IMG/VR virus record: IMGVR_UViG_3300048999_000052
Location: 19,491 to 83,490 of that record
From: a virus
Strand: one strand, 5' to 3'
DNA: 64,000 nt
The position numbers and the translations under genes were made by a program. This document shows, one piece after another, positions 23,276-48,959 of the stretch. The first letter of the stretch is position 1, and each line of letters opens with the position of its first letter. A model generated the notes under the pieces. That model did not search any database, was not told the origin of the DNA, and worked only from the letters and a program-made list of their open reading frames with translations.

Positions 23276-23306
23276 TGAAGCGGGTCTAAAGACTAAGGAT
23301 CAGTAA

Positions 23307-26759: not shown

Positions 26760-26766
26760 GAGTGCC

Positions 26767-27378: not shown

Positions 27379-27422
27379 GCGACTGTCCTCCGGCGTCAAA
27401 CTGGTACTGACAAGGAGGACAG

Positions 27423-27746: not shown

Positions 27747-27752
27747 GGCCAG

Positions 27753-28814: not shown

Positions 28815-28847
28815 GGGTGAACCCTCTCCACGGAAGGTAGGTGTCTG

Positions 28848-30296: not shown

Positions 30297-30317
30297 CAGA
30301 GGTTGCATCCTGGAGTC
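30293..30317 (+). promoter_or_regulatory. candidate late leaderless promoter GTGACAG-N6-CATCCT-N6-ATG
   Basis: Same motif and spacing as upstream of the portal. Confidence 0.45.
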
Positions 30318-31363: not shown

Positions 31364-31372
31364 GGAGCAAGC

Positions 31373-31840: not shown

Positions 31841-31842
31841 CC

Positions 31843-32571
31843 ATGGCCGTGGCTTTCGATGCAGTCGGACCAGCCGCTGCCCTGGGGCAGACTGCTACTA
31901 CTCCGACCACGGTTACGTGGGCGCATATCGTCACAGGGTCCAACACCGCACTCGTGGTGTTCGTTGGCGTGGGTCAGAACTCTGGTTCTGATGCCACCAA
32001 GACGATCAGTAGTGTGACCTATAACGCTGTTGGAATGACCCAGATCGGTACGCCTAAGCACACCAACGACTCAACAGCCGGCTACCTAGCTTGTTATGGG
32101 TTGATCAACCCGACCACTGGAACGAATAACGTAGTGGTCACCTTTGCGTCGGCTCCATCCACAGCTGAGTGTGGATCGGTTTCTTTCACTGGGGTCAACC
32201 AAACCACGGCCTTTGGTACGCCAGTCGTGGGAGCTGGGAACACGACAACGGCTACTGCTGCGGTGGCTTCGAACACGAGTGGCAACATCATCGCCTTCGG
32301 GGTGTGCGGTGGCGTCGACTTCGCCGCAACTCCGACCAGCCCAGCGACCAAGCGCTACTTGGCGAATTTCGGCAACAGCTCGGCGGGTGGTAATGCCGCC
32401 GGGGCCACGATCCCGTCCACTGGTAGCTCAGTCACCACCGCATGGGCAATGAGCGCTGTGGACTTCTGGGCGGTGATCGCGGTCGAGGTTCTGGCTGCTG
32501 GTGGAGCTGCTGCAGTGTCGAGTGTGCCAGCACAGCGGATCCGCCGCATGCAGCCACTGATTGTCCGATAG
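31843..32571 (+). CDS. Thr/Ala/Gly-rich virion structural protein
   Basis: AVAFDA...W.H...SVTY...MT...SFTGVNQT beta-rich pattern. Confidence 0.7.
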   Translation: MAVAFDAVGPAAALGQTATTPTTVTWAHIVTGSNTALVVFVGVGQNSGSDATKTISSVTYNAVGMTQIGTPKHTNDSTAGYLACYGLINPTTGTNNVVVTFASAPSTAECGSVSFTGVNQTTAFGTPVVGAGNTTTATAAVASNTSGNIIAFGVCGGVDFAATPTSPATKRYLANFGNSSAGGNAAGATIPSTGSSVTTAWAMSAVDFWAVIAVEVLAAGGAAAVSSVPAQRIRRMQPLIVR

Positions 32572-32579
32572 GAGACACG

Positions 32580-33068
32580 ATGTACCACGCGAGGGCTTAC
32601 TCGTTCCCGATCAACATCACCACCGCCTTCACGGCTCAGATCGACGTGATGGAGCTACTGGCTGGTACTGGTCGTCCACTACTCATCCTTGGCTTCGAAT
32701 TGGGGCAGATCTCAGAGATCGGTGACGCTCAGGAGGAGGGCTTGACGCTGGTGATGAAGCGGGTCACCGGCGCGCCTACTTCTGGCTCCGGTGGTACGGC
32801 TGCGGCTGCTCCGGTAACGATGCAGCCCAACGATGCCGCGGCTACTGCCACGCTGGAGGTCGGCAACACCACCAAGCTCACCGGTGGAACTTCAGTCGAT
32901 CTGAAGCGCTTCGACTGGAACGTTCGATCCTCTCTGCTGTACCTGCCGGTGCCTGACGCCCGGTTCGTGATCGACGCTGGCACCCGAATGGTGTTGGAGC
33001 TGGTAACCACGCCGGCTGACTCGATCAGTGGCATCCACGGCAGCCTGGACATCCTCGAACTGGTCTGA
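32580..33068 (+). CDS. virion structural protein
   Basis: AGGAGA RBS; beta-rich. Confidence 0.65.
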   Translation: MYHARAYSFPINITTAFTAQIDVMELLAGTGRPLLILGFELGQISEIGDAQEEGLTLVMKRVTGAPTSGSGGTAAAAPVTMQPNDAAATATLEVGNTTKLTGGTSVDLKRFDWNVRSSLLYLPVPDARFVIDAGTRMVLELVTTPADSISGIHGSLDILELV

Positions 33069-33069
33069 C

Positions 33070-34152
33070 ATGCACGTCCATCGGCCACCCTTCCAGTACT
33101 CCGTCTATCGCAAGCGACGGAGGACTTTGGCGTGGACGGTGCCCGGTCCGGTCAGCATCACGCTGGGGGTAGCTACCGAAACGGATGCTGCCCTTGCGTC
33201 GGGCGCCACGAAGGCCACTACCGTCACCATGTCAGTGGCGACAGAGTCGGACTCCGCGCTCGCACTTACATACGCAAGGGCAGCGACCCTGAGCCTAGCT
33301 CAGGAGACTGAGGCCGCTTACTCAGTAGTCGAGACAAAGACCGCAGGCGTTAGCGCTGCCACTGAAACCGATGCTGCGCTGGCCTTGAGTGCCACCAAGG
33401 CCCGGACGGTCACCCTGGGACTCGCCACCGAGACCGACACCGCGTACACGACTTCGGTCAGTACGGCGGCTGGGACTGTCCTTGGCCTGGCGCATGAAAC
33501 TGAGGCCGCCTACACGCTCGGGCTAGCGCGTACGTTCGGGGTCGGTACGTCGGTCGAATCTGACGCTGCGTATTCAATTTCAGTGACGAAGCTCGTGAAT
33601 TCCGGGGCTGAGACCGACACTGCTCACGCTCTGTCGTCAACCAAGGCGATCAGCTACACCCTCGGTACGGCGGTCGAAACCGACCAAGCCAGAGGCAACA
33701 GCGCGGCTAAGACTGAGACCTTGGGCCGAGCTCAAGAAACTGATGCGGTCTTCCCGATCACCAGCAACGGTGAGACCTCAGCTTTGCTGGGTCGAGCCCA
33801 GGAAACTGACGCTGGCCTGAACTTGGTCGCGGTGAAGGCAGTTACCCTCGGCGTGGCTGCTGAGACCGAAGCCGCGTGGTCGCTGGGCTACCTCCGGACA
33901 ATCACCCTGGACCTAGCCCAAGAGACTGACGAGGTCTTCGGGCTGACCCACCACGCTGGAGTACGGCGCAACATCACCATCGTCGCGCTGACCGAGCCGA
34001 CGAATGGCTGGTCAACCAGCGCTCCAGCCACCACCATTGTGATGACCGGCACATCACCTACTACCGCCTGGATCAGCTCTGGTCCAGAGACCGATTGGGC
34101 AACCACTGATCCGGTCAATAACCCGTGGGTCGCTAGCGAGCCCCAGCTGTAA
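33070..34152 (+). CDS. repeat-rich fibre protein (13 x ...A.ET[DE].A...)
   Basis: Thirteen ~20-24-aa repeats visible in the translation. Confidence 0.75.
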   Translation: MHVHRPPFQYSVYRKRRRTLAWTVPGPVSITLGVATETDAALASGATKATTVTMSVATESDSALALTYARAATLSLAQETEAAYSVVETKTAGVSAATETDAALALSATKARTVTLGLATETDTAYTTSVSTAAGTVLGLAHETEAAYTLGLARTFGVGTSVESDAAYSISVTKLVNSGAETDTAHALSSTKAISYTLGTAVETDQARGNSAAKTETLGRAQETDAVFPITSNGETSALLGRAQETDAGLNLVAVKAVTLGVAAETEAAWSLGYLRTITLDLAQETDEVFGLTHHAGVRRNITIVALTEPTNGWSTSAPATTIVMTGTSPTTAWISSGPETDWATTDPVNNPWVASEPQL

Positions 34153-35183: not shown

Positions 35184-36674
35184 ATGCCCATCGTCTTGGA
35201 CCGCCCGCCAAGAACCGACGACGAACTGTGGCATCTGGTTCGGGCGTTGTGGGGTCACACCATTCCGCGCGTGAAAGTGTGCCCGGAGCACAACGCCCCG
35301 TTCGAGGCCTTCTCGACGGCGTACTTCTCCAAGGAGCCGATGTCGCTGATCCACGGCTCGCGTGGTCTGTCGGGCAAATCCCGACTGCTCTCGATCCTGG
35401 GTCTGACCAAAGCTGCCGTTTTGGGCTCGGACGTCAACATCGTCGGTGGCTCGCTGAACCAGTCGAACAACATCCACGAGACCATGCGGGACGCCTGGGA
35501 GCACGAACACGCGCCCAAGTACCTGATCAAGGACGAGTCGATGACGATCGTCCGGCTGCGCAACGGGGCCAAGATCCGCCCGCTGACGGCATCGCAGAAA
35601 ACCGTCCGTGGTCCGCACCCGCCCACGCTGCTGCTGGATGAGATCGACGAAATGGACCAGGCCATCTTGGACGCGGCCCTGGGCCAGCCGATGCCGCAGA
35701 AGAACTATCTGGGTGAGACGATCCCAGCGGTGACGCTGATGTCGTCCACCTGGCAGTACCCGGACAAGACCTTCGCGACCATGTACCAGCGGTTCCAAGA
35801 CGAGGACCTACCGATCTTCTCCTGGTGCATGAAGGACACCTCGAACCCGGTGGATGGCTGGTTGGACCCAGCTTTCATCGAGCAGAAGAAGCGCGAGATC
35901 CCGGCCGAGATGTGGCGGGTGGAGTACGAGCTGGGTGAGCCTTCGATCGGCACCCGTGCCTTCGACTCGGAGATGGTGGAGAAGACGTTCTCCGAGCCAT
36001 TGCCCGAGCCGAAGAAGATCGCCAAGGACTTCGAGCAGTACATGATCCACGACTACCGGATGGACACCGACTACGTCATCGCCGCTGACTGGGCCAAGGA
36101 GCAGGACTTCACCGTGATCACGGTCTGGTCTTGCACCAACCTGCCGATGCGGTTGTGCTACTACCTACGGCTGCGTAGGCGCCCGTACCCGGTGATGATC
36201 GAGTACTACAACAAGCTGATGCGCAAGTACAACGCCGAGGGCATCCACGACGCCACCGGTCTAGGCAACGTGGTGGGTGACTACCTGGACACCCGGGTTC
36301 GCGGCTTCTTGATGACCGGTGCGCAGCGCGACAACATGCTGAGCGAGTACGTGGCTGCGGTGGAGAACGACAAGGTCCGCGCAGCCCGCATCCCGTCGAT
36401 CTACAAGAATCACCTCTACTGTTCGGTAGAGGCGATGTACTCCAGAGCCAAGGAGTTCCATCTCCCCGACGAAGTGTGTTCATCTGCGCTGGCCTGGAAG
36501 CTGGTCAGTCAGCGTCCACAAGCGGTGCTACCGCTGATGATCTCGGGTCAGGACGACTCGAACTGGATGCGTCGGCACGTGGATGCCAACACCAAGTCCG
36601 GGCGGAAGACCGCCTGGGACGTCGGTGAAGTGCACAAGTTGGACAACAGGGACGAGTACTCCCTGATGGTCTGA
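35184..36674 (+). CDS. terL: terminase large subunit
   Basis: Walker A GSRGLSGKS, Walker B LLLDE, VEY, nuclease IAADWA...DATGLG...PDEV; precedes the portal. Confidence 0.9.
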   Translation: MPIVLDRPPRTDDELWHLVRALWGHTIPRVKVCPEHNAPFEAFSTAYFSKEPMSLIHGSRGLSGKSRLLSILGLTKAAVLGSDVNIVGGSLNQSNNIHETMRDAWEHEHAPKYLIKDESMTIVRLRNGAKIRPLTASQKTVRGPHPPTLLLDEIDEMDQAILDAALGQPMPQKNYLGETIPAVTLMSSTWQYPDKTFATMYQRFQDEDLPIFSWCMKDTSNPVDGWLDPAFIEQKKREIPAEMWRVEYELGEPSIGTRAFDSEMVEKTFSEPLPEPKKIAKDFEQYMIHDYRMDTDYVIAADWAKEQDFTVITVWSCTNLPMRLCYYLRLRRRPYPVMIEYYNKLMRKYNAEGIHDATGLGNVVGDYLDTRVRGFLMTGAQRDNMLSEYVAAVENDKVRAARIPSIYKNHLYCSVEAMYSRAKEFHLPDEVCSSALAWKLVSQRPQAVLPLMISGQDDSNWMRRHVDANTKSGRKTAWDVGEVHKLDNRDEYSLMV

Positions 36675-36700: not shown

Positions 36701-38707
36701 ATGGCGAGCTTCGGCGTGGATGATGTGCGGATCTGGGAGGACGTGTCTGAGCCCGTCTCCCAGAACTGGAATCCGCTCGTCGAGCGAGGCGTCACTGGCG
36801 TCAAGCGGTCAGCTGGTCTGATCGATGAGGAGTTCCTTCCGGCACTGCGCGGGCGCAAGGCCATCGAGGTCTTCCGGGAGATGTCCACCAACGACTCGAT
36901 CGTTGGCGCGCTGTTGTTCGCGATCGACAAGCTGATCCGTGAGGTGGAATGGCATGTCGAGGCTCCGGACAACACCCCGGAAGGCACTGAGTGCGCGGAC
37001 TTCCTGGAAAGTTGCATGGACGACATGGAGCACAGCTGGGACGACTTTGTCTCAGAGGTGATGACCATGTTGGTCTTCGGCTGGTCCTGGCACGAGATCG
37101 TCTACAAGAAGCGGATCGGTCCGTGGGAGAAGGACGGGCGGAAGAAGTCGAACTACGACGACGGGATGATCGGCTGGCGCAAGATGCCGATCCGGTCGCA
37201 GGAGACGATGCTGCGCTGGCTGTTCGACAAGAACGGTGACGTCGAGGGTCTGGTTCAGCTGGCCCCGCCGTTCTACCAGGTCACCACCATCCCGATGTCC
37301 AAGAGCCTGTTGTTCCGTACTGCACCCTCCAAGGGCAACCCGGAGGGTCGCTCGCTGCTGCGGACGGCGTACCGGTCCTGGTACTTCAAGAAGCGCCTGG
37401 AGGAGTTCGAGGGCATCGGTGTTGAGCGTGACCTGGCTGGTATGCCGGTGGCTCGGGTGCCTGCGGACTACCTGAACGCGCCCACTGGCTCGCAGAAGGC
37501 CAAGGTCGTCGACGGCTTCCGCAAGATGGTCCGGGGCGTACGCCGGGACGAGAATGAGGGCCTAGTGCTCCCGGTGATGTATGACCCGGACACCAAGCAG
37601 CCGCTGTTCGACTTCGAATTGATGAGCTCTTCGGGAGCGCGCCAGTTCGATACCAACGCGATCATCCAGCGCTACGAGCAGCGGATCTTGATGTCGTGCC
37701 TGGCGGACTTCATTCTGGTCGGGCACGAGCAGTCCGGTTCGTACTCGATGCACACTGACAAGACCGGCATCTTCCGGGCTTCGCTGAACTCGATCACCAA
37801 GAACATCGCCGACACTCTCAACCGCAAGGCCATCCCCAAGCTGTTCGAGCTGAACGGCTGGAAGGTCCGCGAGCTGCCCAAGATCGTCGCCTCCGAGATT
37901 GACCCGCCGGACCTGACCCAGCTCGGCCAACTGATCAGCTCCACGGCGGGGGCTGGCATGCAGTGGTTCCCGGACCCGGAGCTGGAGAAGTTCATTCGGG
38001 ATATCGCTCGGCTGCCGGAGATGCCGGACGAGGTCTTGGAGATCAAGCGCCAGCAGGCCATGCAGGAGCAGGCGATGAGCCTGGCCGACAGCCAGATGCA
38101 GATGCTGGGTCTGCAGCAGAAGGCTGAGCTGACCTCGCAGGGTTACAGCCCGGAGCAGGCACAGATGATCGGTGAGACCCCGACGCCAGAGATGGCCGGC
38201 TATCAGACCGATCAAATGATGCAGCAGCAGCAGGCTGATCTGGAGATGCAGTCGCAGTACGCGATGAAGGACGACCCGGCGGCAGCTGCTCAGCACAGCC
38301 GAGACAACGAAGCCTTCGCTCGGGACCAGAAGGGCAAGGACGCTGATCTCAAGCGTCAGCAGCAGCAGCTGGCTTTGCAGGACCAATACAAGAACAAGGA
38401 CCTGGGCCGGGAGAAGGAGAAGGCCAAGCTCAACGAGCGCGGCCACAAGACCAAGGTCCAGCTGGAAGGCATGAAGGGCAAGGTCGGGGTCCAAAACGAG
38501 AAGGGCAAGTTGAGCCTGGAGGCTCAGCGGGCCAAGATCGCTGACCAGGCCGACAAGTCCAAGTTCGACCGGCAGATGGCCATGCTGAAAGAGAAGGGCA
38601 AGCAGACCCGTACTGCTGCCAGCAAGAAGCCTCTACCGGGCAAGACCGTAGCGGCAGCTAAGAAGACCGCGGCCAAGAAGACGCCGCCGAAGAAGAAGGG
38701 GCGCTGA
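36701..38707 (+). CDS. portal protein (DUF935-like) with long Gln/Lys-rich C-terminal extension
   Basis: FGWS.HEIVY, NPEGRSLLR.AY..W, GVERDLAGMP, GSYS, IP.L..LN. Confidence 0.9.
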   Translation: MASFGVDDVRIWEDVSEPVSQNWNPLVERGVTGVKRSAGLIDEEFLPALRGRKAIEVFREMSTNDSIVGALLFAIDKLIREVEWHVEAPDNTPEGTECADFLESCMDDMEHSWDDFVSEVMTMLVFGWSWHEIVYKKRIGPWEKDGRKKSNYDDGMIGWRKMPIRSQETMLRWLFDKNGDVEGLVQLAPPFYQVTTIPMSKSLLFRTAPSKGNPEGRSLLRTAYRSWYFKKRLEEFEGIGVERDLAGMPVARVPADYLNAPTGSQKAKVVDGFRKMVRGVRRDENEGLVLPVMYDPDTKQPLFDFELMSSSGARQFDTNAIIQRYEQRILMSCLADFILVGHEQSGSYSMHTDKTGIFRASLNSITKNIADTLNRKAIPKLFELNGWKVRELPKIVASEIDPPDLTQLGQLISSTAGAGMQWFPDPELEKFIRDIARLPEMPDEVLEIKRQQAMQEQAMSLADSQMQMLGLQQKAELTSQGYSPEQAQMIGETPTPEMAGYQTDQMMQQQQADLEMQSQYAMKDDPAAAAQHSRDNEAFARDQKGKDADLKRQQQQLALQDQYKNKDLGREKEKAKLNERGHKTKVQLEGMKGKVGVQNEKGKLSLEAQRAKIADQADKSKFDRQMAMLKEKGKQTRTAASKKPLPGKTVAAAKKTAAKKTPPKKKGR

Positions 38708-41700
38708 TGTTCATACCGGTCTTCAAGAGTGCCGACCCGGACTTCAACTACCACGCTGCCGACCTGGCGGCGAAGCTCGTCATGGCCATGGACGAGGACG
38801 AGGCGCGGATGTTCACCACCTGCGTCGTGGCCGACATCCTCTGGGACGACATCGAGAAGAACCAGCGCTCGCTCCAGCGCCACCTCAACTCGGTGGTGTC
38901 CAAGCGGATCCAGATGGTGGCCAAGGCAGCCGATCGGCTGGTGTCCAAGCGGGACAACAACGACTTCGGTACGGCGCTGGTGGAGATCTCCAAGGCCACC
39001 CGCAACCCCTACGACTTCGGCTACGTTTTCAACGAGTCCGACTTCAACCGTGACCCCAGCTCCGGTCAGTTCCGGTCCAAGGTTAGGTACACGGCCTCTA
39101 GGCCGGTGCCGAACAAGGTCGCCCGGGCTACGCCGAACCTGCCCAACCCGGACAAGACCAAGCACCTGAACGCGGCTGAGAAGGCGCGCTACCAGCAGGG
39201 CTACCAGCAGATCGCTAACTTCTTGGACACCATGCGCCAGTCCGGGCTGGCTGGCGACACGAAGACCTATGTCACCGTCCACGACACCGCTGAGAACCGG
39301 ACTTACGTCAAGGAAGTCAGCGGCACCGACGTGCCCACGATTGACCCCAAAACCGAGGCATTTGTCGGGATCGAAGCACGTCCCACGTCGTTGAACGTGG
39401 GCGGCGCTAGCTTCGGCCTGGTAAGTGCTCTGGGTGGTGGAGCCCATCGAGCTGACCGGGCCGGAGCTACTGCGCAGGCAGTCGATGACAATGTTCGCTC
39501 GTTCGCCACTGACTGGACCTCGGCTGGGATGGACAACCCGTTGTCCAGCAATGCTCGGCTGTATGGCCGGGTGGAGGCTGGCTCGCGGTTCCTGGGTCAG
39601 GTCGCTCCGGCTGGTTCCAAGCTGCACATGGCTGCCACCTTCGGTGAGTTCGTCGGCCGCCAAGGACCGCAGGCTGAGCGCGTGCTGGGACCGCGCGCGC
39701 GTACCACCATGTACCGCTACCGGGGTACGGAGAAGACCCCGGACAGCGAACTGACTGGCCCCTACAACCGGCAGCGCACCGGTGGTTACGCGATCGAGAA
39801 CCTGAACCCGGAGAACCAGGCCAAGATCCGCCAACTCCAGCGCGCGGCAATCACCCGGTACAAGAATGCCCACGGCGGCAAGATCAGCACCAAGGAGGCT
39901 GAGGAGGTTCGCCAGAACGTGCTACGGCGCTCCTTCGGGGTCTCCGACAAGGACGCCCGGATGGGTGCGGAGGGTGGCAAGATCCGCGCCTTCCAGACCG
40001 CTCAGGCCTTCATGATGTCCAAGGTGCCAACCGGCAAGCTCTACGACTTGCAGCTGAAGTCTGGGCACACGCCGCCGTCCGAGGGCGTCATCATCGACAA
40101 GGACGGCAAGATCGTCACCCAGGCGATTGGCTACGGTGACGACCACTACCTGCCCTTCAACCTGAAGAACCTGAAGGGGCTGCGCGGTGGTGAATACATC
40201 CGCACCCGGTCTGTGGGTGGTCCGACTACCGAAGACATCTACACCGGTTTGGTGTCTGGTGCGCATCGGCTCACCGTGGTCTCTCGTTCTGGCACCTTCA
40301 CCATCACCTTCGACGACACTTTCCGTAGTACGCGTCGGTACAACGACAAGGCTGGTCGGATGGTGGACCGGTACGGGAAGATTCTTGATGCGATCAAGTC
40401 TGAGCAGGTAGAACGCCAGCCGCTGGATCCCACTGTCCGGGCGAAGATCGCCAACGACGTGGAGACCGAGATGGGCTGGGCGCCGGCTCGGGAACAGCGC
40501 AACGAGATCCGTCGTCGCGAAGCCGAGTACAAGGAGAACCCGTACCTCACCGATGAGGACGAGGCCCAGATCGAGCGGGTCGTTCAGCGCCACGGTGGCT
40601 CGGATGCCGACAAGCAGCGGACCCGAGCTGAGCTACGTAACCAAGCGCTGGAGGACAAGGCTTACAACTTCCGGCTTAACGGTGACGGTTACGCAGCTGG
40701 CATCAAGGCGCTGGAGGAGCAGTTCCCGTACTACATCGCTGACGCTACCCACCGACCCACCCGTGAGGGTCGCTACGAGGGTGCTGGCGACCGGGGCTAC
40801 GTGAAGCCGCGCTTCAACCGGCCCAGCGAAGCCCTGGAGGGCTACTTCGACCCCTCGATCAGCGGTGAGGGCACCTTCTCCAACCCTCGGGGCGAGAAGA
40901 CCGGCAAGAACCGCGCTGACCGGATGGACTACCAGAACTCCCGGGGACGACTGACTCGGGTGGATGCTACCGAGCGGGCTCCGGGTGAGAAGGAAGCTGA
41001 GCCGGCGGTGGCTCGTCCGCCAGCTGACACGGTGGCTGCTCCCACTCCGGCCGAAGTAATGGCGGATCGGATTGAGACTGCTGCGGCCCGGCAGAGCCTG
41101 ACTGATCGTGCCGTTGAGCTGCAGCAGGCAGTAGCAGCCCGGACGGTTGCTGCCGGTGGAGACCCTGGTCCGCTGAAGGACTTCATCAGCCTGAGCCCGG
41201 AGGAGTTCCGGAACTGGTACGCCTCACCGGCCAACCAGGACACCTTCCACCGCCAGGTCGAGGCCACCATCCGACCGAACATGGACCGGCTGGGAGTCAA
41301 GGACCAGCTGACCAACTACGGAGCAGCGCGCGGGTTGGCAGGCGGGGAGAAGTTCAACCGGGCCAATCACATGGCTACCGTGCCGGATCAGCCCTACACC
41401 TTCGAGGGTGCGCCCTACATGCGTGGCGGCAATCTGGACAAGAAGGAGCGCGAGCTGCAGCGGATCGCGGCTCGGACCAAGGTGCCGGACTTCGGCTCGC
41501 TGGCGGACATGGAACACGACGATGACTTCAAGGAAGCGCTGCGTTCGGCTCAGAAGCTTCGGGTGATCTCTGACCAGCTGGCGCAATACCCGCCGGATGA
41601 GAACGGCAGCCGTAACTCCTACCTGATGGCACTGGCTCAGAATGATGAGACGGTGGCGGCGATGTCGCCAGAGGAGAAGCGACTGCTGACCGAGCCCGGT

Positions 41701-42138
41701 CGAGTCGACCAGATGGTCGAGGACGTCAACCGGGCCTGGGCACTGCGCAAGCTGATCGGTCCGAAGACCACCCTGACCACCAGTACCGGACGGCTGGAAC
41801 CTACCGGGCAGACCATCGCTACACCGCCGCAGACTCCGGTGCAGCGAGCCGAAGCCTCGGTAGTGACGCCAGCCTCGAACCGAAGGGCTGCTCGAAGCTA
41901 CCGCGAGGCATTGTCGACCTACGCTCAGCGGATTGCCGATATCAACCCGCAGGCAGCCGACGCACTCAACGACGTCGCCAGCCAGTTCGACATTGCCCAG
42001 CACACGCCCGAGGCCAGCGTGCAGAGCGAGTTCAACGCTGCTCAGGCAGCATTGATGGACCTGACCACTGACTTCCCGCAGTTCAAGAAGGGGATCGAGG
42101 AGGACATCATGCGCCGCCTGCATGAGGACAACCGGTGA
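38707..42138 (+). CDS. large internal head protein (1143 aa) with degenerate JAB/MPN-like domain
   Basis: Between portal and MuF; N-terminal [VI]xK-rich segment, RD..GQF motif, EGVIIDKDG...RTRSVGGPTTEDI. Confidence 0.65.
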   Translation: MFIPVFKSADPDFNYHAADLAAKLVMAMDEDEARMFTTCVVADILWDDIEKNQRSLQRHLNSVVSKRIQMVAKAADRLVSKRDNNDFGTALVEISKATRNPYDFGYVFNESDFNRDPSSGQFRSKVRYTASRPVPNKVARATPNLPNPDKTKHLNAAEKARYQQGYQQIANFLDTMRQSGLAGDTKTYVTVHDTAENRTYVKEVSGTDVPTIDPKTEAFVGIEARPTSLNVGGASFGLVSALGGGAHRADRAGATAQAVDDNVRSFATDWTSAGMDNPLSSNARLYGRVEAGSRFLGQVAPAGSKLHMAATFGEFVGRQGPQAERVLGPRARTTMYRYRGTEKTPDSELTGPYNRQRTGGYAIENLNPENQAKIRQLQRAAITRYKNAHGGKISTKEAEEVRQNVLRRSFGVSDKDARMGAEGGKIRAFQTAQAFMMSKVPTGKLYDLQLKSGHTPPSEGVIIDKDGKIVTQAIGYGDDHYLPFNLKNLKGLRGGEYIRTRSVGGPTTEDIYTGLVSGAHRLTVVSRSGTFTITFDDTFRSTRRYNDKAGRMVDRYGKILDAIKSEQVERQPLDPTVRAKIANDVETEMGWAPAREQRNEIRRREAEYKENPYLTDEDEAQIERVVQRHGGSDADKQRTRAELRNQALEDKAYNFRLNGDGYAAGIKALEEQFPYYIADATHRPTREGRYEGAGDRGYVKPRFNRPSEALEGYFDPSISGEGTFSNPRGEKTGKNRADRMDYQNSRGRLTRVDATERAPGEKEAEPAVARPPADTVAAPTPAEVMADRIETAAARQSLTDRAVELQQAVAARTVAAGGDPGPLKDFISLSPEEFRNWYASPANQDTFHRQVEATIRPNMDRLGVKDQLTNYGAARGLAGGEKFNRANHMATVPDQPYTFEGAPYMRGGNLDKKERELQRIAARTKVPDFGSLADMEHDDDFKEALRSAQKLRVISDQLAQYPPDENGSRNSYLMALAQNDETVAAMSPEEKRLLTEPGRVDQMVEDVNRAWALRKLIGPKTTLTTSTGRLEPTGQTIATPPQTPVQRAEASVVTPASNRRAARSYREALSTYAQRIADINPQAADALNDVASQFDIAQHTPEASVQSEFNAAQAALMDLTTDFPQFKKGIEEDIMRRLHEDNR

Positions 42139-44123
42139 CGGCTGATCTGTTCGAGGACCCGGGCCAGGAACTCCTGGCTCGGGGCACCGCTGACCCGATT
42201 GAGGCGCTCCAGCTCAGTCAGGCCGAGCAGGACCAGCTCGACGTGGTTCGGGGCGAGGCTAACTCGGCTCGGACGCTAGCCCAGGTCGGGCTGGTCCTCG
42301 GTGCCGCCTTCTTGCTGTACCGCCACTATGTCCACCGCCGGACTTTGGCTCAAGTAAGTTCCCAGCCTGAATCGCGCTTCCTTCAGGCTCTGACCTTGCG
42401 CAACGCTCGGAACTTCATCCCGGCCTGGGTGTACATGGTCACGCCCGCACTGGAGACCGCCTACACGGTCGGCATGGTCCGGGGCGGGAATGCCGCTATC
42501 CCGGACGAGATGGTTACCCAGTACGCCCAGCGGTACGCAACCGACATCGCTGACTACATCAACGAGACCTCGGCGCAGGCACTGGCTGAGGGCTTCAATG
42601 CCTACGTCAACAAGAAGGTGGCTCGGCGGGTAGCAGCCGAGAAGGCACTGCAGGGCTTCGGACTGAACAGCAGGATGATGCGTGCCCTGGTCGGGCGGGT
42701 AGCCCGGGCCAAGGTCGACTCGGTGGTTGAACTCAATCACGATGCCTCCACCCGGGACTGGATCGAAATGATGCTGGTCCAGCGGGCGCACGACATCGGG
42801 GACAACGAGGGCTTCAATGTCTCCCAACATGGACAACAGATCACCTGGTTGTACCTACAGCGGACGGGGCGACTGTCGCCAGCCGCACTCAAGGTCTGGC
42901 ACACCGCCCGGGACGAACGTGTGTGTCCGTCATGCGGTCCGCTGGATAAGCAGGCCGTACCGGTCAACCAGCCCTTCACGACCGTCTTTGGGAAGCTGTG
43001 GGTGCCTTCGATGCATCCAAACTGTCGTTGCGAGGTGCGACTCCGGTCTCTGGTGCGAGATGAGTTCGTAGCTGAGCAGGTGGCTAAGGCCGATGCCTTC
43101 CTGGAGCGCGAGCACCCGCGTGGGCGCGATGGTCGGTTCCGGGCGAAGCCAGCGGCTGAGCGCGAGCGCGAAAGCGATCTGGAAAGGTTGCTCCGTGAAG
43201 TCGAAGAGCGCGAAGCACCGCCGGAGCCGGCTGTCGATCTGGGTGAAGCGGTTGATCTGGGTACGGGTGTGGATCTGGGCGCAGCTTCACTCGGAGGCAC
43301 CTCCCTGGCCGGAGTCGACCTCGGACCCGTCAATCTTGGCCAAGCCGAACAAGTCGAACTGGCTCAACCAGCCGTAAGCATCCCGGCCGTCTCGCTGCCG
43401 CAGGAGCAGGTTGAGTTGGCTGGTCAGCAGATGGTGTCGCTGGCTACCGACCAGACGGCAGTGATGCTGACCGAAGCTCCTCGGGCGCCAATTCAGGCCA
43501 AGGGGCCGGGGATCATCAATCTGCCCGACACCTTGTACAGGCTGGATACGGCTGGCTTCCACTTCCACCCGGAGTACTCCGATCACCTGACCTGGTCCGA
43601 TGACGGCGAGGTGGAGTACGCCTTCTTTGGTCCAGAGCATGAGTTCACTACGCATCAGAACACGGTGGACGCAATAAAGGCGCTGTACGAGCAGGAGATC
43701 GAGCGGGAGACCACTCGGATCATGACCGAGGGCAGGAACTACGTCGGTGCCCAGGGACGCGACCCGCTGCAGCTGGATCGGCACTTTGTCCGGGCTGCGA
43801 TCGAGGCTGAGGTCACTGGCTCTCCTGATCACCCTGGTTTCCGTACCTATGCCAACGCGATGGGGATCCACCGTAGCGAATGGATCCTGCGGGTTTATCG
43901 GATGGACCGGGCCTACTCCGAAGGCTTCGTCGGTGAGATGAGCGCGCACGGCGAGACCGAGTTCTTCCAGGCGCCCGGACGGTACTACGCCGAGGACGAG
44001 CTGCTAGCCACCGAAGAGTGGGACGGCTGGCCGGTGGCTGTGGTGGATGTCGAGCCGGAAGAGGAGGAGGGGCAATTCGATGACTTCCGCACCCGCAACC
44101 GTGATGACTGGCCACCGAGCTGA
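42135..44123 (+). CDS. MuF/SPP1 gp7-like head morphogenesis protein with C-terminal extension
   Basis: KVWHTARDERVCPSCGPLD...PSMHPNCRC; HPRGRDGRF; VDLG repeats. Confidence 0.85.
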   Translation: MTADLFEDPGQELLARGTADPIEALQLSQAEQDQLDVVRGEANSARTLAQVGLVLGAAFLLYRHYVHRRTLAQVSSQPESRFLQALTLRNARNFIPAWVYMVTPALETAYTVGMVRGGNAAIPDEMVTQYAQRYATDIADYINETSAQALAEGFNAYVNKKVARRVAAEKALQGFGLNSRMMRALVGRVARAKVDSVVELNHDASTRDWIEMMLVQRAHDIGDNEGFNVSQHGQQITWLYLQRTGRLSPAALKVWHTARDERVCPSCGPLDKQAVPVNQPFTTVFGKLWVPSMHPNCRCEVRLRSLVRDEFVAEQVAKADAFLEREHPRGRDGRFRAKPAAERERESDLERLLREVEEREAPPEPAVDLGEAVDLGTGVDLGAASLGGTSLAGVDLGPVNLGQAEQVELAQPAVSIPAVSLPQEQVELAGQQMVSLATDQTAVMLTEAPRAPIQAKGPGIINLPDTLYRLDTAGFHFHPEYSDHLTWSDDGEVEYAFFGPEHEFTTHQNTVDAIKALYEQEIERETTRIMTEGRNYVGAQGRDPLQLDRHFVRAAIEAEVTGSPDHPGFRTYANAMGIHRSEWILRVYRMDRAYSEGFVGEMSAHGETEFFQAPGRYYAEDELLATEEWDGWPVAVVDVEPEEEEGQFDDFRTRNRDDWPPS

Positions 44124-44133
44124 CCATGAAGTC

Positions 44134-45099
44134 ATGACCAGCGCAATCCAGGATGTAGCCGAGCTGCTATTTGGCGACGGCGCGGACGAGCTGGTGCGTA
44201 AGATGAACCCTACCCAGTCCGACCTGGCTGCCAAGAAAAAGCGTGAGCGGACCCAGGCCCAGGTCGGTCTGGCCTCCAACCTTGTCGGGATCACCGCTGG
44301 TACGGCTGCGACAGCTGAAGCCGCGGGCAAGTTCAAGGAAGCTCGCCGGCTCAAGCGCGGCCTGTTGACTGAGGCCAAGGTGCCGGGCAAGATCGCCACT
44401 TCACTGGGACACATCAAGACCAAGCACGTAGTCGGGCTGGCTGCGGCTGGTCTTGGCCTGCAGGCGGCCAACGTGGCTGGCGATGCGATCGCCAACCGGG
44501 TGCTGGCCCGTAGCGCCAAGATGCCCCAGGATCACAAGAAGAAGATTCAGAAGAACAAGAACGAGTACGCCACCGACATCACCTTGTCTCGGGGCAAGCT
44601 GGCGATGGCTGGGGTGAAGACCGGCAAGAAGGCTGCTCCGGTGATGGTGGACACTGCCCGCAAGATCGAGAGCAAGGTCCAGAAGGATTTGGACATCACC
44701 TGGGAGGGTGAGTTCTCCAAGTTCGACACCGACAAGAAGCAGGTCTTCGGCTGGGCTTCGGTGGTGGAGATCGGTGGTGAGCCGGTGATCGATCGTCAGG
44801 GTGACTACATCTCCCCCGACGAGATCGAGAAGGCGGCGTACTCCTACGTGGTCAAGTCCCGCAAGGGCGGGGACATGCATCAGCGCACCGGCGAAGTACC
44901 GCTGCACGTCTCGGACATGATCGAGTCGTTCATGGTCACGCCGGAGAAGCTGGAGAAGATGGGACTGCCTTCGGACGCACTGCCCACCGGTTGGTGGGTC
45001 GGGTACCAGATCAACGACGACAAGACCTGGGACCTGGTGAAGAAGGGCGAACGGACGGGGTTCTCTATCCACGGTCGTGGCAAGCGGAAGGACCTCTGA
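44134..45099 (+). CDS. XkdF-like prohead serine protease core fused to an N-terminal Gly-zipper region
   Basis: VFGWASV...DRQGD.I...EIEKAAY...DMH...IESF...GWWVG..I.D...W..VKKGE.TGFSI.G. Confidence 0.85.
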   Translation: MTSAIQDVAELLFGDGADELVRKMNPTQSDLAAKKKRERTQAQVGLASNLVGITAGTAATAEAAGKFKEARRLKRGLLTEAKVPGKIATSLGHIKTKHVVGLAAAGLGLQAANVAGDAIANRVLARSAKMPQDHKKKIQKNKNEYATDITLSRGKLAMAGVKTGKKAAPVMVDTARKIESKVQKDLDITWEGEFSKFDTDKKQVFGWASVVEIGGEPVIDRQGDYISPDEIEKAAYSYVVKSRKGGDMHQRTGEVPLHVSDMIESFMVTPEKLEKMGLPSDALPTGWWVGYQINDDKTWDLVKKGERTGFSIHGRGKRKDL

Positions 45100-46088
45100 T
45101 GCCCTACCAGTCCGACGCGCAGCGTGGCTTCATGCACGCCAAGCATCCTGAGATCGCGGCCAAGTGGGACGCGGAGATCCGGTCCAAGAAGCACAAGCAC
45201 TCCAAGGACTGCGAGCACGCGGTGGACAAGAACGACCCGTTCGAGGTTGCCAAGGCCAAGATCCCGAAGGTGTCTGCTGGTCTGTCCGGTGCGCAGAAGG
45301 CTGGCCGCAAGGCCAAGAGCACTGCTAAGAACACCTACCTGAATGCCACCTCCAAGCCGACCTTCCGTAGTCCGTACACCGGTGACAAGTTCGGTAGCCG
45401 GAACAGTCGGATGTCGTCGTCTGACAAGAAGTTCTCCTTTCGGACTGGGCTAGCTGTGGGTGCTACCGGTGGCGGACTGGCTTCTGGCGTCGTTCATAGT
45501 CCGGAGATTAAGCGCAACAACAAGAAGGCCGAGGAGCTGAGCAAGGCTCGCTCGACTTTGATCACTGACTTCGGTACGACTGCGGGTAAGGCCCGTAAGT
45601 ACCCCGGGTTCCGAGCTGGGCGGTTCGCTGCCGGTACGGCAGTTGGGGCTGGGGCGATTTATGGCATGGGCTCAGCAGAGCGTGATGTCTCCAGGAATGC
45701 GTTGAGCCGGGCTCAGTCGAACAAGAAGCGGCGGGACACCATCGCCGCCAAGAAGAACGGGAGTACGACCGTGGCGAAGCAGGAGAAGGCAACGGGTGGA
45801 CGGCTGGCGGCGGGATATCTCGCTCCCGGTATCCATGGCGCGATTGCGGGCAAGAAGGGCAGCAAGCTCCGGGCGGCAGGCAACGAATTGGGCGGCACTG
45901 TCCTGGGATCGACTGCCGGTGGATTGGCTGCTGGTGTGCTGACCAGAGGTAAGGGCGCGGCGGCGGGCTCGGCCATTGGCTCTGGTGTCGGCGCTGTGGC
46001 TGGTACGGCTCGGGCGCAGCGGAAGGGTCACTTCAAGTTGCAGAAGAACGATGCCGTCTCGGCGTTCGGTGTGGACCACGGCTACTGA
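45099..46088 (+). CDS. basic multi-module Gly-zipper head protein
   Basis: MPYQSDAQR.FMHAKHPEIA.KW N-terminal motif; three cationic/hydrophobic modules; ends SAFGVDHGY. Confidence 0.75.
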   Translation: MPYQSDAQRGFMHAKHPEIAAKWDAEIRSKKHKHSKDCEHAVDKNDPFEVAKAKIPKVSAGLSGAQKAGRKAKSTAKNTYLNATSKPTFRSPYTGDKFGSRNSRMSSSDKKFSFRTGLAVGATGGGLASGVVHSPEIKRNNKKAEELSKARSTLITDFGTTAGKARKYPGFRAGRFAAGTAVGAGAIYGMGSAERDVSRNALSRAQSNKKRRDTIAAKKNGSTTVAKQEKATGGRLAAGYLAPGIHGAIAGKKGSKLRAAGNELGGTVLGSTAGGLAAGVLTRGKGAAAGSAIGSGVGAVAGTARAQRKGHFKLQKNDAVSAFGVDHGY

Positions 46089-46089
46089 G

Positions 46090-46440
46090 ATGGCCCAGAA
46101 CTCGAAGTTGCCAAGCAACTCGCGAATCGCTCGCCAGAAGAAGGCCCAGGCGGGCTTCTCTCTGGTGGGCGGCACGCTGGGCCTTGCTGCGTTGGCTTCT
46201 CGGGGTAAGGCTTCGCAGCTCACCAATGCGGCCAAGAAGACCACTGCCAATGGTCCACGGCTGCTCAGCCAGGCAGCCAGGTGGAAGGACCGCAGTACGG
46301 CGCTGACCACCGCAGGTGCTGGAGTTGGCGGAGTTGGAGCGTACAACTTCGCCTCCTACACCAACGCGGACGCGAAGAAGCAGCAGCGGTTGAAGAAGTC
46401 CGACACGGTTTCACCGTTCGGAATTGACCACGGGTATTAA
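46090..46440 (+). CDS. basic Gly-zipper head protein
   Basis: Two Gly/Ala hydrophobic segments; ends SPFGIDHGY. Confidence 0.75.
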   Translation: MAQNSKLPSNSRIARQKKAQAGFSLVGGTLGLAALASRGKASQLTNAAKKTTANGPRLLSQAARWKDRSTALTTAGAGVGGVGAYNFASYTNADAKKQQRLKKSDTVSPFGIDHGY

Positions 46441-46483
46441 ACCCGACTTGCGCGGACTCAGAAACTAAGAGCGAGGTGACGAA

Positions 46484-47509
46484 GTGAAGCCGAAGGTTGT
46501 CAAGGGACTGTCCGACATCGAGATCGACGAGGTCTCGCTGGTGGACCGGAGTGCCAACCAGCACGCTGCAGTCGCCATCGCGAAGAGGGCTCCCGAGGAG
46601 GAGAATATGCCCGATCTGTACACCGAGGACGGAACCCTCCTCGATGAAGACACCCTGGTGAACGGCCAGATCGTCTATGCCCAGGACGGCACCGCCTACG
46701 AGTTCACCGCCGACCCTGAGGTCGAGCCGGGGGACGAAGAGGTTGACGAGCCGGACGAGGACATTGAAGACGACGACGTTGAGGTAGAAGAGCGGGAGCT
46801 TGCTGGTGTTGGCAAGGCCTTTGGCTTCGCCGGCTCTGCTGGTACGCAGGCCCCGAGTCGCCCGACGATGCAGCCCTCCACCCCGGCTAGCCCGTTCCGA
46901 GTCGGCGCGGGTATGAACCAGCAGAAGAAGAAGCCCCTCGCGGGCCAAATGGGAGGTGGCGCGATGCCCCAGCGTCCGAAGCTCGGGGCGGCTGCTGCAC
47001 GCCCCACGGTCGCGAAGTCTTTCCAGGAGCAGGTACTCGAAGAGCTGTCCAAGGCCTACACCGACGAGGACCGCGATGCGGTGCTGTCGAAGGCGTTCGC
47101 TGAGGTAGACGGCTATAAGACCCAGGCGGCTGAGGCAGTCAAGATTGCCAAGTCCGAGCGGGACCTGCGACTGACCAACGAGTACATCGCCAAGGCAGAG
47201 GAATACAACCTGCCGGTGGATGCTGCTCAGCTCGGCCCGGTGCTGTACCGGATGGCCGAGACCATGAGCTACGAGGACTGCTCGGTGATCGCGAAGTGCC
47301 TGGAGGCTTCGGGCTCGATGATCTTCGAGGAGGTCGGCTACATCGGTGGCGGTGACAATGTCGACGTACTGGACGCTGTTGACGCTCAGGCTCAGGAGCT
47401 GGTCGGCAAGTCCGACAGCTTGGGCACCGAGGAAGCCTGGTCTCAGGTATTCGAGTCCAACCCGCAGGCCTACGACGAGTACCTCGCCCAGTCGCGGCGC
47501 GGTTACTGA
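46484..47509 (+). CDS. scaffolding protein with N-terminal protease strand; internal start at 46607
   Basis: LSDIEIDEVSLVDRSAN; acidic linker; helical C-half ending NPQAYDEY; upstream of capsid genes. Confidence 0.8.
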   Translation: MKPKVVKGLSDIEIDEVSLVDRSANQHAAVAIAKRAPEEENMPDLYTEDGTLLDEDTLVNGQIVYAQDGTAYEFTADPEVEPGDEEVDEPDEDIEDDDVEVEERELAGVGKAFGFAGSAGTQAPSRPTMQPSTPASPFRVGAGMNQQKKKPLAGQMGGGAMPQRPKLGAAAARPTVAKSFQEQVLEELSKAYTDEDRDAVLSKAFAEVDGYKTQAAEAVKIAKSERDLRLTNEYIAKAEEYNLPVDAAQLGPVLYRMAETMSYEDCSVIAKCLEASGSMIFEEVGYIGGGDNVDVLDAVDAQAQELVGKSDSLGTEEAWSQVFESNPQAYDEYLAQSRRGY

Positions 47510-47530: not shown

Positions 47531-47932
47531 GTGGCGTACGACGAGTCGCTCCGTAGCATCACGCTGAAGGCTGACAGCTCTGTCGGCATCTACACGGGTG
47601 TACCCGGCATGCCGGGATCTGCGAACCCCAACGCGGGCAAGCAGTACCACTTCGTGAAGGTGACCGGTGCAGGGATTATCGGTCTCGGAGACGCAACCGC
47701 AAATCCGGTTGGCGTCCTCCAGAACAAGCCCCAGGGCGTTGGCCATGCGGCCACCGTGGGGTTCAACGGTGTCACCCGAGTTGTCTCGGACGTGGCCATC
47801 ACCGCTGGCGACCTGATCAAGGTCTCCGCAGATGGCCAGGCCGCAAAGACCGGCGCGGGTCCGACCGTTGGAATCGCTCTGACCACGACTGCGGCGGCAG
47901 GGGACCTTGTGTCCGTCCTGCTGACCCTCTGA
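47531..47932 (+). CDS. capsid decoration/cement protein (DUF2190-like)
   Basis: FVK...GVLQNKP...G.T.V.....I.AGD.I.....G.A...GIAL..A.AGD.VSVLL. Confidence 0.8.
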   Translation: MAYDESLRSITLKADSSVGIYTGVPGMPGSANPNAGKQYHFVKVTGAGIIGLGDATANPVGVLQNKPQGVGHAATVGFNGVTRVVSDVAITAGDLIKVSADGQAAKTGAGPTVGIALTTTAAAGDLVSVLLTL

Positions 47933-47951: not shown

Positions 47952-48959
47952 ATGCCGTCTCCCTCGCAGAGCGATCTCCACGTCAACGTACCGCTGACGA
48001 ACATCTCGATCGCGTACATGCAGAAGGCTGACGCGTATATCGCGAACAAGGTCTTCCCGCGTGTACCGGTGCAGAAGCAGTCGGACATGTACTGGAAGTA
48101 CACCAAGTCGGACTGGCGCCGGACGGACGTGCAGAAGCGTGCGCCGGGCACCGAGTCGGCTGGCGTCGGCTGGAAGGTCGACACCGATACGTACTTCGCG
48201 CACCCGTACGCGGTGCACAAGGACATCGACGACCAGCTTCGGGCCAACGCAGACTCCAACTGGAGCCTGGATCGGGACTCGACCACGTTCATCACCAACC
48301 AGATGCTGATCAAGCGGGACCTGGACTGGGCGAACGCGTTCTTCAAGACCGGTGTGTGGGGATCGGACCAGACTGGTGTGGCGGCTAGCCCGACCACCAA
48401 CCAGTTCCTGCAGTTCGACGACCCGGCCTCTGACCCCATCTCGCTGTTCGCGATGGCTCAGATCAAGTTCGTCGAGCAGACCGGCTACAAGGCCAACACC
48501 CTGGTCATGGGTGCACAGGTGCTCCGGGTTCTCAAGGAACACCCGGACATCATCGACCGAATCAAGTACACCCAGAAGGGCATCGTCAGCACTGACCTGC
48601 TGGCCACGCTCTTCGACGTGGACAAGATCCTGGTCAGCTACGCTTCCTCGACCAACGTCGCCGAGCAGGCTGACGGTCGGCTCCAGGACGCGGCAGCCAC
48701 CTACGCTTTCATCAACGACCCGTACTCGATGCTGCTGTGCTACAGCGCTTCGTCCCCGTCGCTGATGACCCCGACCGCGGGGTACACGTTCACCTGGAAC
48801 GGGTACAGCAACGGCAACGGCCAGGGCATTCGGGTCAAGAACTTCCGGATGGAACACCTGGAGGTTGATCGCATCGAGGCCACGATGACCTACGACATGA
48901 AGGTTGTGTCGCCGGACATGGGCATCTTCTACTCGGCTGCAGTCGCCACGGTTTCCTGA
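47952..48959 (+). CDS. major capsid protein
   Basis: HVNVPLTNISIAY...IA..VFP.VPV.KQS...RAPGTE; 335 aa; followed by a terminator. Confidence 0.9.
   Translation: MPSPSQSDLHVNVPLTNISIAYMQKADAYIANKVFPRVPVQKQSDMYWKYTKSDWRRTDVQKRAPGTESAGVGWKVDTDTYFAHPYAVHKDIDDQLRANADSNWSLDRDSTTFITNQMLIKRDLDWANAFFKTGVWGSDQTGVAASPTTNQFLQFDDPASDPISLFAMAQIKFVEQTGYKANTLVMGAQVLRVLKEHPDIIDRIKYTQKGIVSTDLLATLFDVDKILVSYASSTNVAEQADGRLQDAAATYAFINDPYSMLLCYSASSPSLMTPTAGYTFTWNGYSNGNGQGIRVKNFRMEHLEVDRIEATMTYDMKVVSPDMGIFYSAAVATVS

Follow-up and report, generated by a model that had tools for sequence, protein, structure and literature searches.

Basic modules with conserved hydrophobic-x-Lys boundaries in the head genes of an uncultured siphovirus: candidate internal proteins processed by an XkdF-type protease

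The internal proteins IPI-III of phage T4 carry a capsid-targeting sequence, are trimmed by the gp21 protease, are kept with the DNA and are ejected. Internal and ejection protein sets of T4 and of phiKZ/SPN3US (gp175/gp245) are the subject of PMC9026906, PMC7411985 and PMC10052503, and the gp4 protease of HK97 cuts gp5 at K103/S104 (PMC10275583). Here we describe a head-gene cluster in a stretch of 64,000 nucleotides (hereafter the window, in which position 1 is the first letter) that represents positions 19,491 to 83,490 of IMG/VR record IMGVR_UViG_3300048999_000052. The record is 83,490 bp long and has direct terminal repeats, the window within it has a G+C content of ~61%, and the source is an uncultured tailed phage, a siphovirus of ~83 kb. 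Judged from its sequence, the stretch probably encodes the inner core of a procapsid, consisting of an XkdF-type protease, a scaffold with acidic and helical parts, and basic, Gly/Ala-rich helical modules. These modules are carried on the N-terminus of the protease, on two small proteins and on an insert in the scaffold. Our preferred reading, to which we give a probability of roughly one half, is that they are protease-processed internal head proteins comparable to those of T4.

The cluster resembles the T4 IPI-III and phiKZ-SPN3US sets in that small basic proteins are encoded with the head genes, bear a short terminal peptide and would be trimmed by a protease at a short motif. It differs from T4 in that the protease is of the XkdF/S78_2 type rather than the gp21 type, the putative site ends with Lys rather than Glu, the cargo is modular (alone, in arrays of up to 1021 amino acids (aa), or within the scaffold and protease) with tags at either terminus, and the phage is a siphovirus. 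Compared with HK97, the Peptidase_S78 family of gp4 is related to that of the window protease according to Pfam naming, and the gp4 site also follows a Lys and precedes a small residue. However, the XkdF domain of the window is ~135 aa long and ends ~10 residues past its Ser, with a pairing strand predicted to come from the scaffold, whereas HK97 has neither a separate scaffold nor cargo. Staphylococcus phage 80alpha, a siphovirus, has an internal protein, gp44, that leaves with the DNA. It is reported to be a single protein that protects the genome ends (PMC7290940); no likeness to the module in sequence or architecture was seen, and none was tested. Therefore, the statement of an earlier first-pass annotation of the window, that nothing of this kind had been described for siphoviruses, was too broad.

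The protease gene (44134-45099; like all genes and segments from the portal to the major capsid protein, on the plus strand) encodes 321 aa, of which ~190 form a basic N-terminal extension. In an alignment of 39 proteins (A3), residues 1-23 (44134..44202) form an N-terminal tag, F-G-D-G...L-V-x-K, in which L12 is nearly invariant, G14 is invariant and K23 is Lys in 89% of the 38 homologues. The following basic segment (residues 24-140, 44203..44553, net charge +15) contains two conserved Gly/Ala-rich helices at residues ~42-60 and ~98-125, predicted with low confidence, and ends at K140, which is Lys in 97% of the homologues and belongs to a hydrophobic-x-K in 87%. A basic linker of variable length (residues 141-184, 44554..44685) then ends at K184 (V-Q-K, conserved in 42%), and most other Lys residues of the extension are kept in ~20-40% only. 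The XkdF-type domain (residues 185-321, 44686..45099) opens with an invariant F/I-S-K, of which K196 is found in 100% of the homologues. It matches Peptidase_S78_2 (PF14550) with an E-value of 3e-20 (72.8 bits versus a cut-off of 24), residues 194-318 aligning with positions 5-124 of the 126 in the profile. H249, S311 and H313, invariant in the 39 sequences, are candidate catalytic residues. In all three proteins that run past the protease domain, V-S-K, V-A-K or I-S-K occurs within ~10 residues of the conserved Ser. Proteases with this extension are frequent in metagenomes: of the 8000 candidates scored, 867 reached E <= 1e-5.

The next gene (45099-46088) encodes a protein of 329 aa (P0002, hereafter the 45099 protein) with a net charge of +37 and no family assignment, which is divided by conserved Lys residues in a similar manner. 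Its N-terminal 'MPY' tag (residues 1-44, 45099..45230) ends at K44, and in four homologues the gene begins just past this position. Two basic Gly/Ala-rich segments follow (residues 45-227, 45231..45779, alignment A1), with charges of +14 (45-149) and +12 (150-227), and end at K227. A core module of ~100 aa (residues 228-316, 45780..46046) then ends at K316 and is followed by the C-terminal tag S-A-F-G-V-D-H-G-Y and the stop codon (46047..46088). In the alignment of 12 sequences, all 11 homologues have Lys at K227 and 91% have it at K316; the pair brackets the core module. The module itself starts with an invariant His-Gly...Lys-Gly-x-Lys-Leu block (G-R...H-G-A-V-A-G-K-K-G-x-K-L, with H246, K253, K256 and L257 as the invariant non-Gly residues), after which a Gly-zipper helical hairpin is predicted. 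The AlphaFold2 (AF2) model of residues 218-329 (112 aa, 45 relatives) reached a predicted local distance difference test score (pLDDT) of 75 and a predicted template modelling score of 0.57, with helices at positions 39-65 and 70-91 of the construct. Like the Gly-zipper families PF13441, PF13488 and PF05433, the module pairs two helices rich in Gly, Ala and Ser through a short basic turn. Unlike them, it stays below the Pfam cut-offs, begins with an invariant block of its own, has a basic end motif and is encoded in a viral head cluster rather than belonging to the bacterial envelope.

The second small protein (P0003, 116 aa, 46090-46440, hereafter the 46090 protein) also has no family assignment. 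It carries a net charge of +14 and represents a second module type, with two Gly-rich segments, a boundary Lys at K103 and a C-terminal tag of the S-A-F-G type that it shares with the 45099 protein (BLASTP, 49% identity over 43 aa, E-value 1e-7). This module type is also found within P0017, within a 296-aa protein of an 81-kb relative (L006) and in locus L007. Where the protease, 45099 and 46090 genes meet, the stop codon of one overlaps or directly adjoins the start codon of the next, the protease stop overlapping the ATG of the 45099 gene, which we read as a sign of translational coupling. Fusion of the 45099, 46090 and scaffold genes by frameshift or readthrough was considered and rejected, the junctions resembling those of ordinary coupled genes, and the GTG start of the scaffold gene has a Shine-Dalgarno sequence upstream.

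The core module belongs to a family of ~100-aa modules that is previously undescribed. A profile built from P0002 and 11 relatives was compared with 1.84 billion representative proteins and retrieved 269 (E <= 0.001), of which 170 reached E <= 1e-10; each of the 269 stands for a cluster at 50% identity. Members occur alone (100-130 aa), as polyproteins or arrays of up to 1021 aa, or inserted in scaffolds, and two of the 30 long members have an N-terminal DUF7218. No Pfam or PHROG family covers the core module, and no publication on this module family, on Gly-zipper ejection proteins or on a Gly-zipper capsid protein was found in a search that excluded subscription journals.

Both between modules and at protein ends, the family contains a recurrent linker that reads hydrophobic-x-K-[N/S], 3-4 residues, S-A-F-G-V-D-H-(G), 2-3 residues and hydrophobic-S-K-A. 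Across 158 proteins of the family we counted 130 S-A-F-G tags, of which 55 are N-terminal, 23 are C-terminal and 52 are internal. At least six residues follow the tag in 107 cases; hydrophobic-x-Lys comes after it in 87 of these, with Ala directly behind the Lys in 57 of the 87. Similarly, hydrophobic-x-Lys lies 8-34 aa upstream of the core module in 129 of 136 cases, versus 52.6±5.2 after shuffling within these windows, in which hydrophobic-x-R and hydrophobic-x-E occurred 23 and 11 times. On the other side of the module, an end motif could be recognised in 104 copies, 88 of which form the end of the protein or are followed by hydrophobic-x-Lys within 12 aa. T4-type internal proteins share a short terminal targeting peptide. 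The portable S-A-F-G tag, and likewise the MPY tag, which is attached to unrelated proteins, may have such a role. In the 81-kb relative L006, three different proteins (6966-7850, 9735- and 16788-18104) open with S-A-F-G-V-D/E-H followed by V-S-K, one of them encoded by a small open reading frame (ORF) right after the portal gene, and a fourth protein ends with the tag.

The MPY tag (the first ~27 residues), which no library family covers, is likewise portable. Many viral contigs (L009-L016) have it at the start of tiny proteins (34-73 aa) that are extremely rich in Lys, and it also opens proteins of 1234 and 1267 aa (L006, L008) and the 1021-aa polyprotein P0143. In a tblastn comparison of the 45099 protein with 50,697 phage records, matches were confined to residues 1-26 and came from seven Streptomyces phage records, FlowerPower (gp48; L001, 9001-9219) being an example. 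There, the tag likewise opens tiny Lys-rich proteins, encoded between a 77-aa 'peptidase' and the holin.

To describe the genomic context, we set aside 7 near-duplicates among the 25 IMG/VR loci with the module and analysed the remaining 18, scanning 150 of the 160 ORFs within 4.2 kb. The location of T4-type cargo in the head cluster, beside protease and scaffold, is seen in the window, and a recognised head gene lies within 4.2 kb of the module in 17 of the 18 loci (none was recognised in L040). phrog_673 and phrog_1005 are each present in 13 of the 18 loci. The module is located upstream of the scaffold or the major capsid protein (MCP) gene in 11 loci, in 9 of them directly after the XkdF domain. 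In four other loci, the module gene follows the MCP gene and precedes the head-tail connector genes (L022, 5530-6357; L028, 6001-6315; L033, 1763-2446; L036, 5716-6327), which indicates that the module is mobile within the head cluster; its position was left unassigned in L030, L039 and L040. Arthrobacter phage Kovu and Microbacterium phage ValentiniPuff, which are relatives by their capsid proteins, have a scaffold-cement-MCP trio without modules.

The scaffold (46484-47509; phrog_13547, E-value 2e-8) is also partitioned by conserved Lys residues. Its N-terminal element, I-D-E-V-S-L-V-D...I-A-K (residues 1-34, 46484..46585), contains eight residues that are invariant in 15 sequences (alignment A5), namely I14, D15, E16, S18, V20, D21, A24 and K34. 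The acidic region that follows (residues 35-111, 46586..46816) has 30 D+E and 3 K+R in 77 residues and ends with V-G-K. Next comes a basic insert of 67 aa (residues 112-178, 46817..47017) rich in Pro, Gly and Ala, with a charge of +9 and no acidic residue, which is flanked by V-G-K|A-F and V-A-K|S-F. The helical core (47018..47509) contains L-S-K-A (K190), S-K-A (K203) and additional hydrophobic-x-Lys sites. Across the 15 sequences, K190 and K203 do not vary and K111 is nearly invariant. In short scaffolds, the acidic region ends with just one V-G-K|S-F, at the position of the insert in the window scaffold. At this same position, P0012, P0013 and P0016 contain a Gly-zipper module, with the motif kept on both flanks (P0012/P0016).

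Structure prediction of the complex between protease residues 183-321 and scaffold residues 1-60 gave a score of 0.62, the best of three controls giving 0.04. The mark applied is reached by 116 of 157 solved complexes and by 2 of 215 mismatched pairs, counts that are only rough because our own alignments were used. At least 66% of the contacts agreed among the runs, and the pLDDT of the partner was at least 46. In the predicted complex, scaffold residues 9-17 run antiparallel to protease residues 311-318, the strand with Ser311, which supports binding of the scaffold N-terminus to this strand. The scaffold N-terminal element also showed a weak match to the C-terminal part of an S78 profile (P0012 residues 9-40 with profile positions 128-159 of 165, E-value 0.085). 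In the cultured Roseobacter phage CRP-6, the protease (gp55) ends just past the Ser motif as in the window, and the scaffold gene (gp54) is next. Its scaffold opens with E-L-S-L-V-D-R-P-A-N...F-K, similarly to that of the window, and the N-terminus of its protease is tag-like (A-F-D-I-D...I-N-K-A-D). However, CRP-6 has no Gly-zipper genes between protease and scaffold, and its annotation lists the two genes as hypothetical. The arrangement of the two genes recurs in the cultured Ruegeria phage Tedan, where the opening element has diverged further. Since both cultured phages share it, the layout in which the protease stops and the scaffold follows is normal for the group and not a disruption, and the idea that inserted genes have split a protease fold across two genes was abandoned.

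From these features we infer the following course of cleavage, retention and ejection. The scaffold N-terminal strand would dock on the Ser311 strand and thereby tie the protease to the scaffold core, and the portable terminal tags (S-A-F-G-V-D-H type and MPY) would bring accessory proteins into this core. After assembly of the shell, the protease would cut at the conserved hydrophobic-x-Lys linkers, in a manner comparable to the Lys/Ser cut of HK97. The acidic scaffold pieces would then leave, expelled by the incoming DNA, while six basic pieces of 67-117 aa, with +9 to +16 each, would stay on the packaged DNA. At infection, the cationic modules would exit the capsid with the DNA, as the T4 internal proteins do, and might afterwards condense or protect DNA, insert into a membrane or do nothing. 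In a more elaborate form, any protein with a tag and hydrophobic-x-Lys boundaries would be plug-in cargo that enters the core, is freed there and is held on the DNA by its charge while the scaffold is expelled. The Gly-zipper hairpins would be co-ejected to membrane or DNA, opening an entry route or shielding the genome, and the XkdF protease would be completed or recruited in trans by the scaffold strand. This elaborate form we consider improbable.

The case for cleavage comes from specific conserved positions rather than from the abundance of a motif. The first-pass annotation had proposed that the proteins between the portal and decoration genes are punctuated by [VIL]xK at module boundaries. 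Every site it listed is present in the translations of the six head proteins, including the 1143-aa and MuF-like proteins described below: K7, K66, K73, K81 and K96 of the 1143-aa protein (five [VIL]xK in its first 96 residues); K318 of the MuF-like protein; K23, K140 and K184 of the protease; K44, K52, K149, K227 and K316 of the 45099 protein; K103 of the 46090 protein; and K34, K111, K178, K190, K203, K223, K237 and K309 of the scaffold. The five basic segments that it expected to be released exist as well, with net charges of +11 to +16 (protease 24-140; 45099 protein 45-149, 150-227 and 228-316; 46090 protein 1-103), and the scaffold insert (112-178, +9) is a sixth that it overlooked. The claim that the motif marks module boundaries held for specific sites, which rank among the most strongly conserved Lys and lie where domains or genes begin or end in the families of the protease, the MuF-like protein, the scaffold and the 45099 protein, and not for the generic motif, which is not enriched. 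Generic [VIL]xK is the tail end of the longer linkers described above, which had gone unseen. Relatives have these boundary sites as well, at places where genes alternatively start or end and on either side of modules inserted in scaffolds. They fit cleavage by the adjacent S78-clan protease because the HK97 protease cuts at K103/S104. Overall, what survives of the earlier proposal is a set of head-assembly proteins built, by inference, from separable basic modules with conserved boundary sites, and what does not is the generic motif. Shuffling of the individual proteins gave a [VIL]xK excess for the scaffold (10 versus 3.1±1.6 expected, reached by 0 of 2000 shuffles), which resembles scaffolds degraded at many sites. 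The other proteins were at expectation: the 1143-aa protein (9 versus 8.2), the MuF-like protein (3 versus 2.1), the protease (8 versus 7.2), the 45099 protein (6 versus 4.5) and the 46090 protein (1 versus 1.5).

Several results weigh against processing and ejection. The annotation had predicted that [VIL]xK would be enriched over a Lys-matched background; this fails because Lys residues of the head proteins carry the motif no more often than those elsewhere in the genome. V, I or L stands at position -2 of 37 of the 168 Lys in the six head proteins (0.220) and of 216 of the 1035 Lys elsewhere (0.209; Fisher p = 0.40), where the comparison set was produced by a crude gene caller based on G+C at third codon positions. 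A narrower motif, [VIL][ASG]K[ASRNQG], occurs 16 times versus 3.3±1.8 expected in the head set (five-fold) and 19 times versus 16.5 in the rest, a motif picked post hoc after the sequences had been seen. The homologues are related and were clustered at 50% identity, so that the conservation counts given above are not independent events, and the conserved hydrophobic-x-Lys could be structural, at strand or helix ends, rather than scissile. The docking model places a strand, and not a hydrophobic-x-Lys bond, beside Ser311 and therefore supports recruitment, not cleavage. That the cargo tags dock in the same way as the scaffold strand is a guess; homology of the tags to the scaffold N-terminus, the protease N-terminal tag or the start of the XkdF domain was dropped at hhalign probabilities of 0.2-9.8%. 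The AF2 model of the protease is weak (pLDDT 61, and <50 for the last 10 residues, 312-321, after Ser311). It had no match in the PDB by Foldseek at E <= 0.001, and in the VIA wide search only long helices or the helical extension were matched (Z <= 5.8), with no match to a protease fold of the HK97/herpesvirus type. A sequence profile of the protease retrieved only a chance row from the PDB (E-value 0.31) and no relative. Proteolysis by XkdF is only 'putative' in Pfam. With subscription journals outside the search, no account of XkdF site specificity was found in the literature, where the papers on XkdF proteases and capsids appear to be genome descriptions. Finally, no cultured relative carrying the module was found: the core module and P0047 had no tblastn match in the phage records (low-complexity filter on), and a single pattern (A6) gave 158 matches in 185,579 species genomes, 0 of which were confirmed.

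Some of these results would also suit modules that act as uncleaved accessories of the scaffold core, serving helix packing, portal nucleation or charge balance, with the conserved sites and tags as docking elements or ends of secondary structure, and that are lost with the scaffold. The module is found inside scaffolds (P0012, P0013 and P0016), the acidic scaffold region with its 30 D+E could pair electrostatically with basic modules, and the sole interaction tested, by prediction, is a docking and not a cut. Amphipathic helices can favour hydrophobic-x-polar, and [VIL]xR is raised in the head set as well (50 versus 35.5). However, [VIL]xE is not (28 versus 34.8), and the motif occurs where gene breaks vary and on either side of the inserts, as excision sites would. 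In addition, stand-alone modules of 100-130 aa and the modules after the MCP gene in four loci are hard to fit as parts of a scaffold. We therefore regard uncleaved accessories as an unlikely explanation.

The first-pass annotation had favoured another explanation, in which the modules, once released, would act on membranes as Gly-zipper peptides: ejected together with the DNA, they would form an entry channel or mediate exclusion or anti-defence. The H protein of phiX174, with Gly-rich helices in a DNA conduit, is a comparable case. The annotation's claim of Gly-zipper modules, counted here as small-xxx-small-xxx-small periodicity, was borne out for the 45099 protein (34 versus 18.6±4.2 expected), where it falls in the two adjacent helices of the predicted hairpin (pLDDT 75), and not for the protease extension (6 versus 4.5) or the 46090 protein (3 versus 5.7). 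The nearest structural neighbours of the core module in the Atlas are Gly-zipper_YMGG, Gly-zipper_Omp and Rick_17kDa clusters; all were 'under the bar' (template modelling scores of 0.47-0.62) and are therefore leads only. Two of the 30 long family members (P0089 and P0122) have sub-threshold Gly-zipper matches in Pfam (20.8-22.4 bits versus cut-offs of 25-28.9). However, neither P0002 nor P0003 matched the Gly-zipper Pfam families even at E <= 10, and Foldseek of the module model against the PDB yielded only E-values of ~8-10 and none <= 0.001. The maximal 19-residue Kyte-Doolittle mean is 1.25, under the usual 1.6 for membrane helices, a value that does not settle membrane insertion, and a module charge of +11 to +16 is no less compatible with DNA binding. 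In siphoviruses, channels are usually formed by the tape measure protein. That of the window (53214-59267, 2017 aa) contains Peptidase_M23 and SLT transglycosylase domains, so that the tail itself bears wall-degrading activities and a channel borne by the head is not needed. A membrane-active role thus seems doubtful. Least of all do we credit a compositional artefact, in which Lys/Gly/Ala-rich low complexity yields hydrophobic-x-Lys by chance: the non-significant shuffles of five of the six head proteins and the per-Lys frequency would agree with it, but the position-specific conservation across 38, 11 and 14 homologues, the 129 of 136 upstream sites versus 52.6 expected, the invariant H246, K253, K256 and L257, and the 269 clusters found by the profile make it highly improbable.

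The genes around the core cluster were assigned as the first-pass annotation had described (Portal_Mu, Phage_Mu_F, Peptidase_S78_2/XkdF, cement and the phrog_1005 capsid protein). The large terminase gene (35184-36674) is followed by that of a Mu-type portal (36701..38707; Portal_Mu, E-value 3e-32; phrog_113, E-value 3e-87). The C-terminal ~150 residues of the portal (38250-38704) form a Lys-rich, low-complexity tail that ends in a run of A/K/P; the portal of L006 has a Lys-rich tail as well. This tail would be a further basic element facing the interior of the capsid. The cement or decoration protein (47531-47932; phrog_673, E-value 3e-13) is just under the cut-off for Phage_cement_2 (23.9 bits versus 24) and precedes the major capsid protein (47952-48959; phrog_1005).

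Between the portal and the protease, the window encodes the 1143-aa protein (38707..42138), without a Pfam or PHROG family, and the MuF-like minor head protein (42135..44123). Homologues of the 1143-aa protein are present in L006, L008, L011, L007 and L020. Those of L006 and L008 have an extra N-terminus consisting of the MPY tag, a Gly-rich segment and poly-Lys ending with hydrophobic-K-K, and the window gene starts just past the hydrophobic-K-K that is internal in these two. The MuF-like protein reaches the Phage_Mu_F cut-off exactly (29.6 bits), covering only the last 44 profile positions, and matches PHROG head-morphogenesis families with a best E-value of 1e-11. Its K318 (codon 43086) belongs to a hydrophobic-x-Lys located 10-25 residues past the CxC end of the MuF domain in seven of seven homologues; in L006, the site directly precedes an S-A-F-G tag. 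The motif R-D-x-x-G-R/Q-F-R/S occurs soon after hydrophobic-x-Lys in both the 1143-aa protein (residues ~113-128, 39040-39090) and the MuF-like protein (~326-340, 43110-43150), and homologues in L027 and L035 have it as D-R-D-R-x-G-R-F-S-R. The two proteins may use this short motif as a common peptide for binding, with the portal as a conceivable partner.

Farther upstream, just 5' of the terminase gene, a 374-aa protein (33028-34152) without a Pfam match consists for the most part of ~14 tandem units of ~20 residues rich in A/T/E/D, with recurring E-T-D-x-A. The region 22568-32571 encodes collagen-repeat fibre-like proteins, a Gly_rich_2 protein of 1150 aa and an M15 peptidase, a block separate from the main tail genes, which follow the head genes. 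Elsewhere, the window encodes a DnaB helicase, a primase, the alpha subunit of DNA polymerase III and RuvC, and no tRNA genes. The whole stretch had no megablast match in the 50,697 phage records.

If the proteins are uncleaved scaffold accessories, they represent an ordinary though unannotated part of the head module. If instead the preferred reading, protease-processed internal head proteins, is true, it would provide a candidate cleavage rule (hydrophobic-x-Lys followed by Ala, Ser or Asn) for the widespread and uncharacterised XkdF proteases and would place a new viral domain family of ~100 aa, with 269 clusters and no Pfam or PHROG model, in head assembly. The tags and linkers would then be handles for loading foreign proteins into capsids. 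The predicted docking of scaffold and protease can be tested in the cultured Roseobacter phage CRP-6. More broadly, the preferred reading would offer a simple, testable picture of how internal proteins are loaded and sorted in tailed phages outside the T4 and phiKZ groups.

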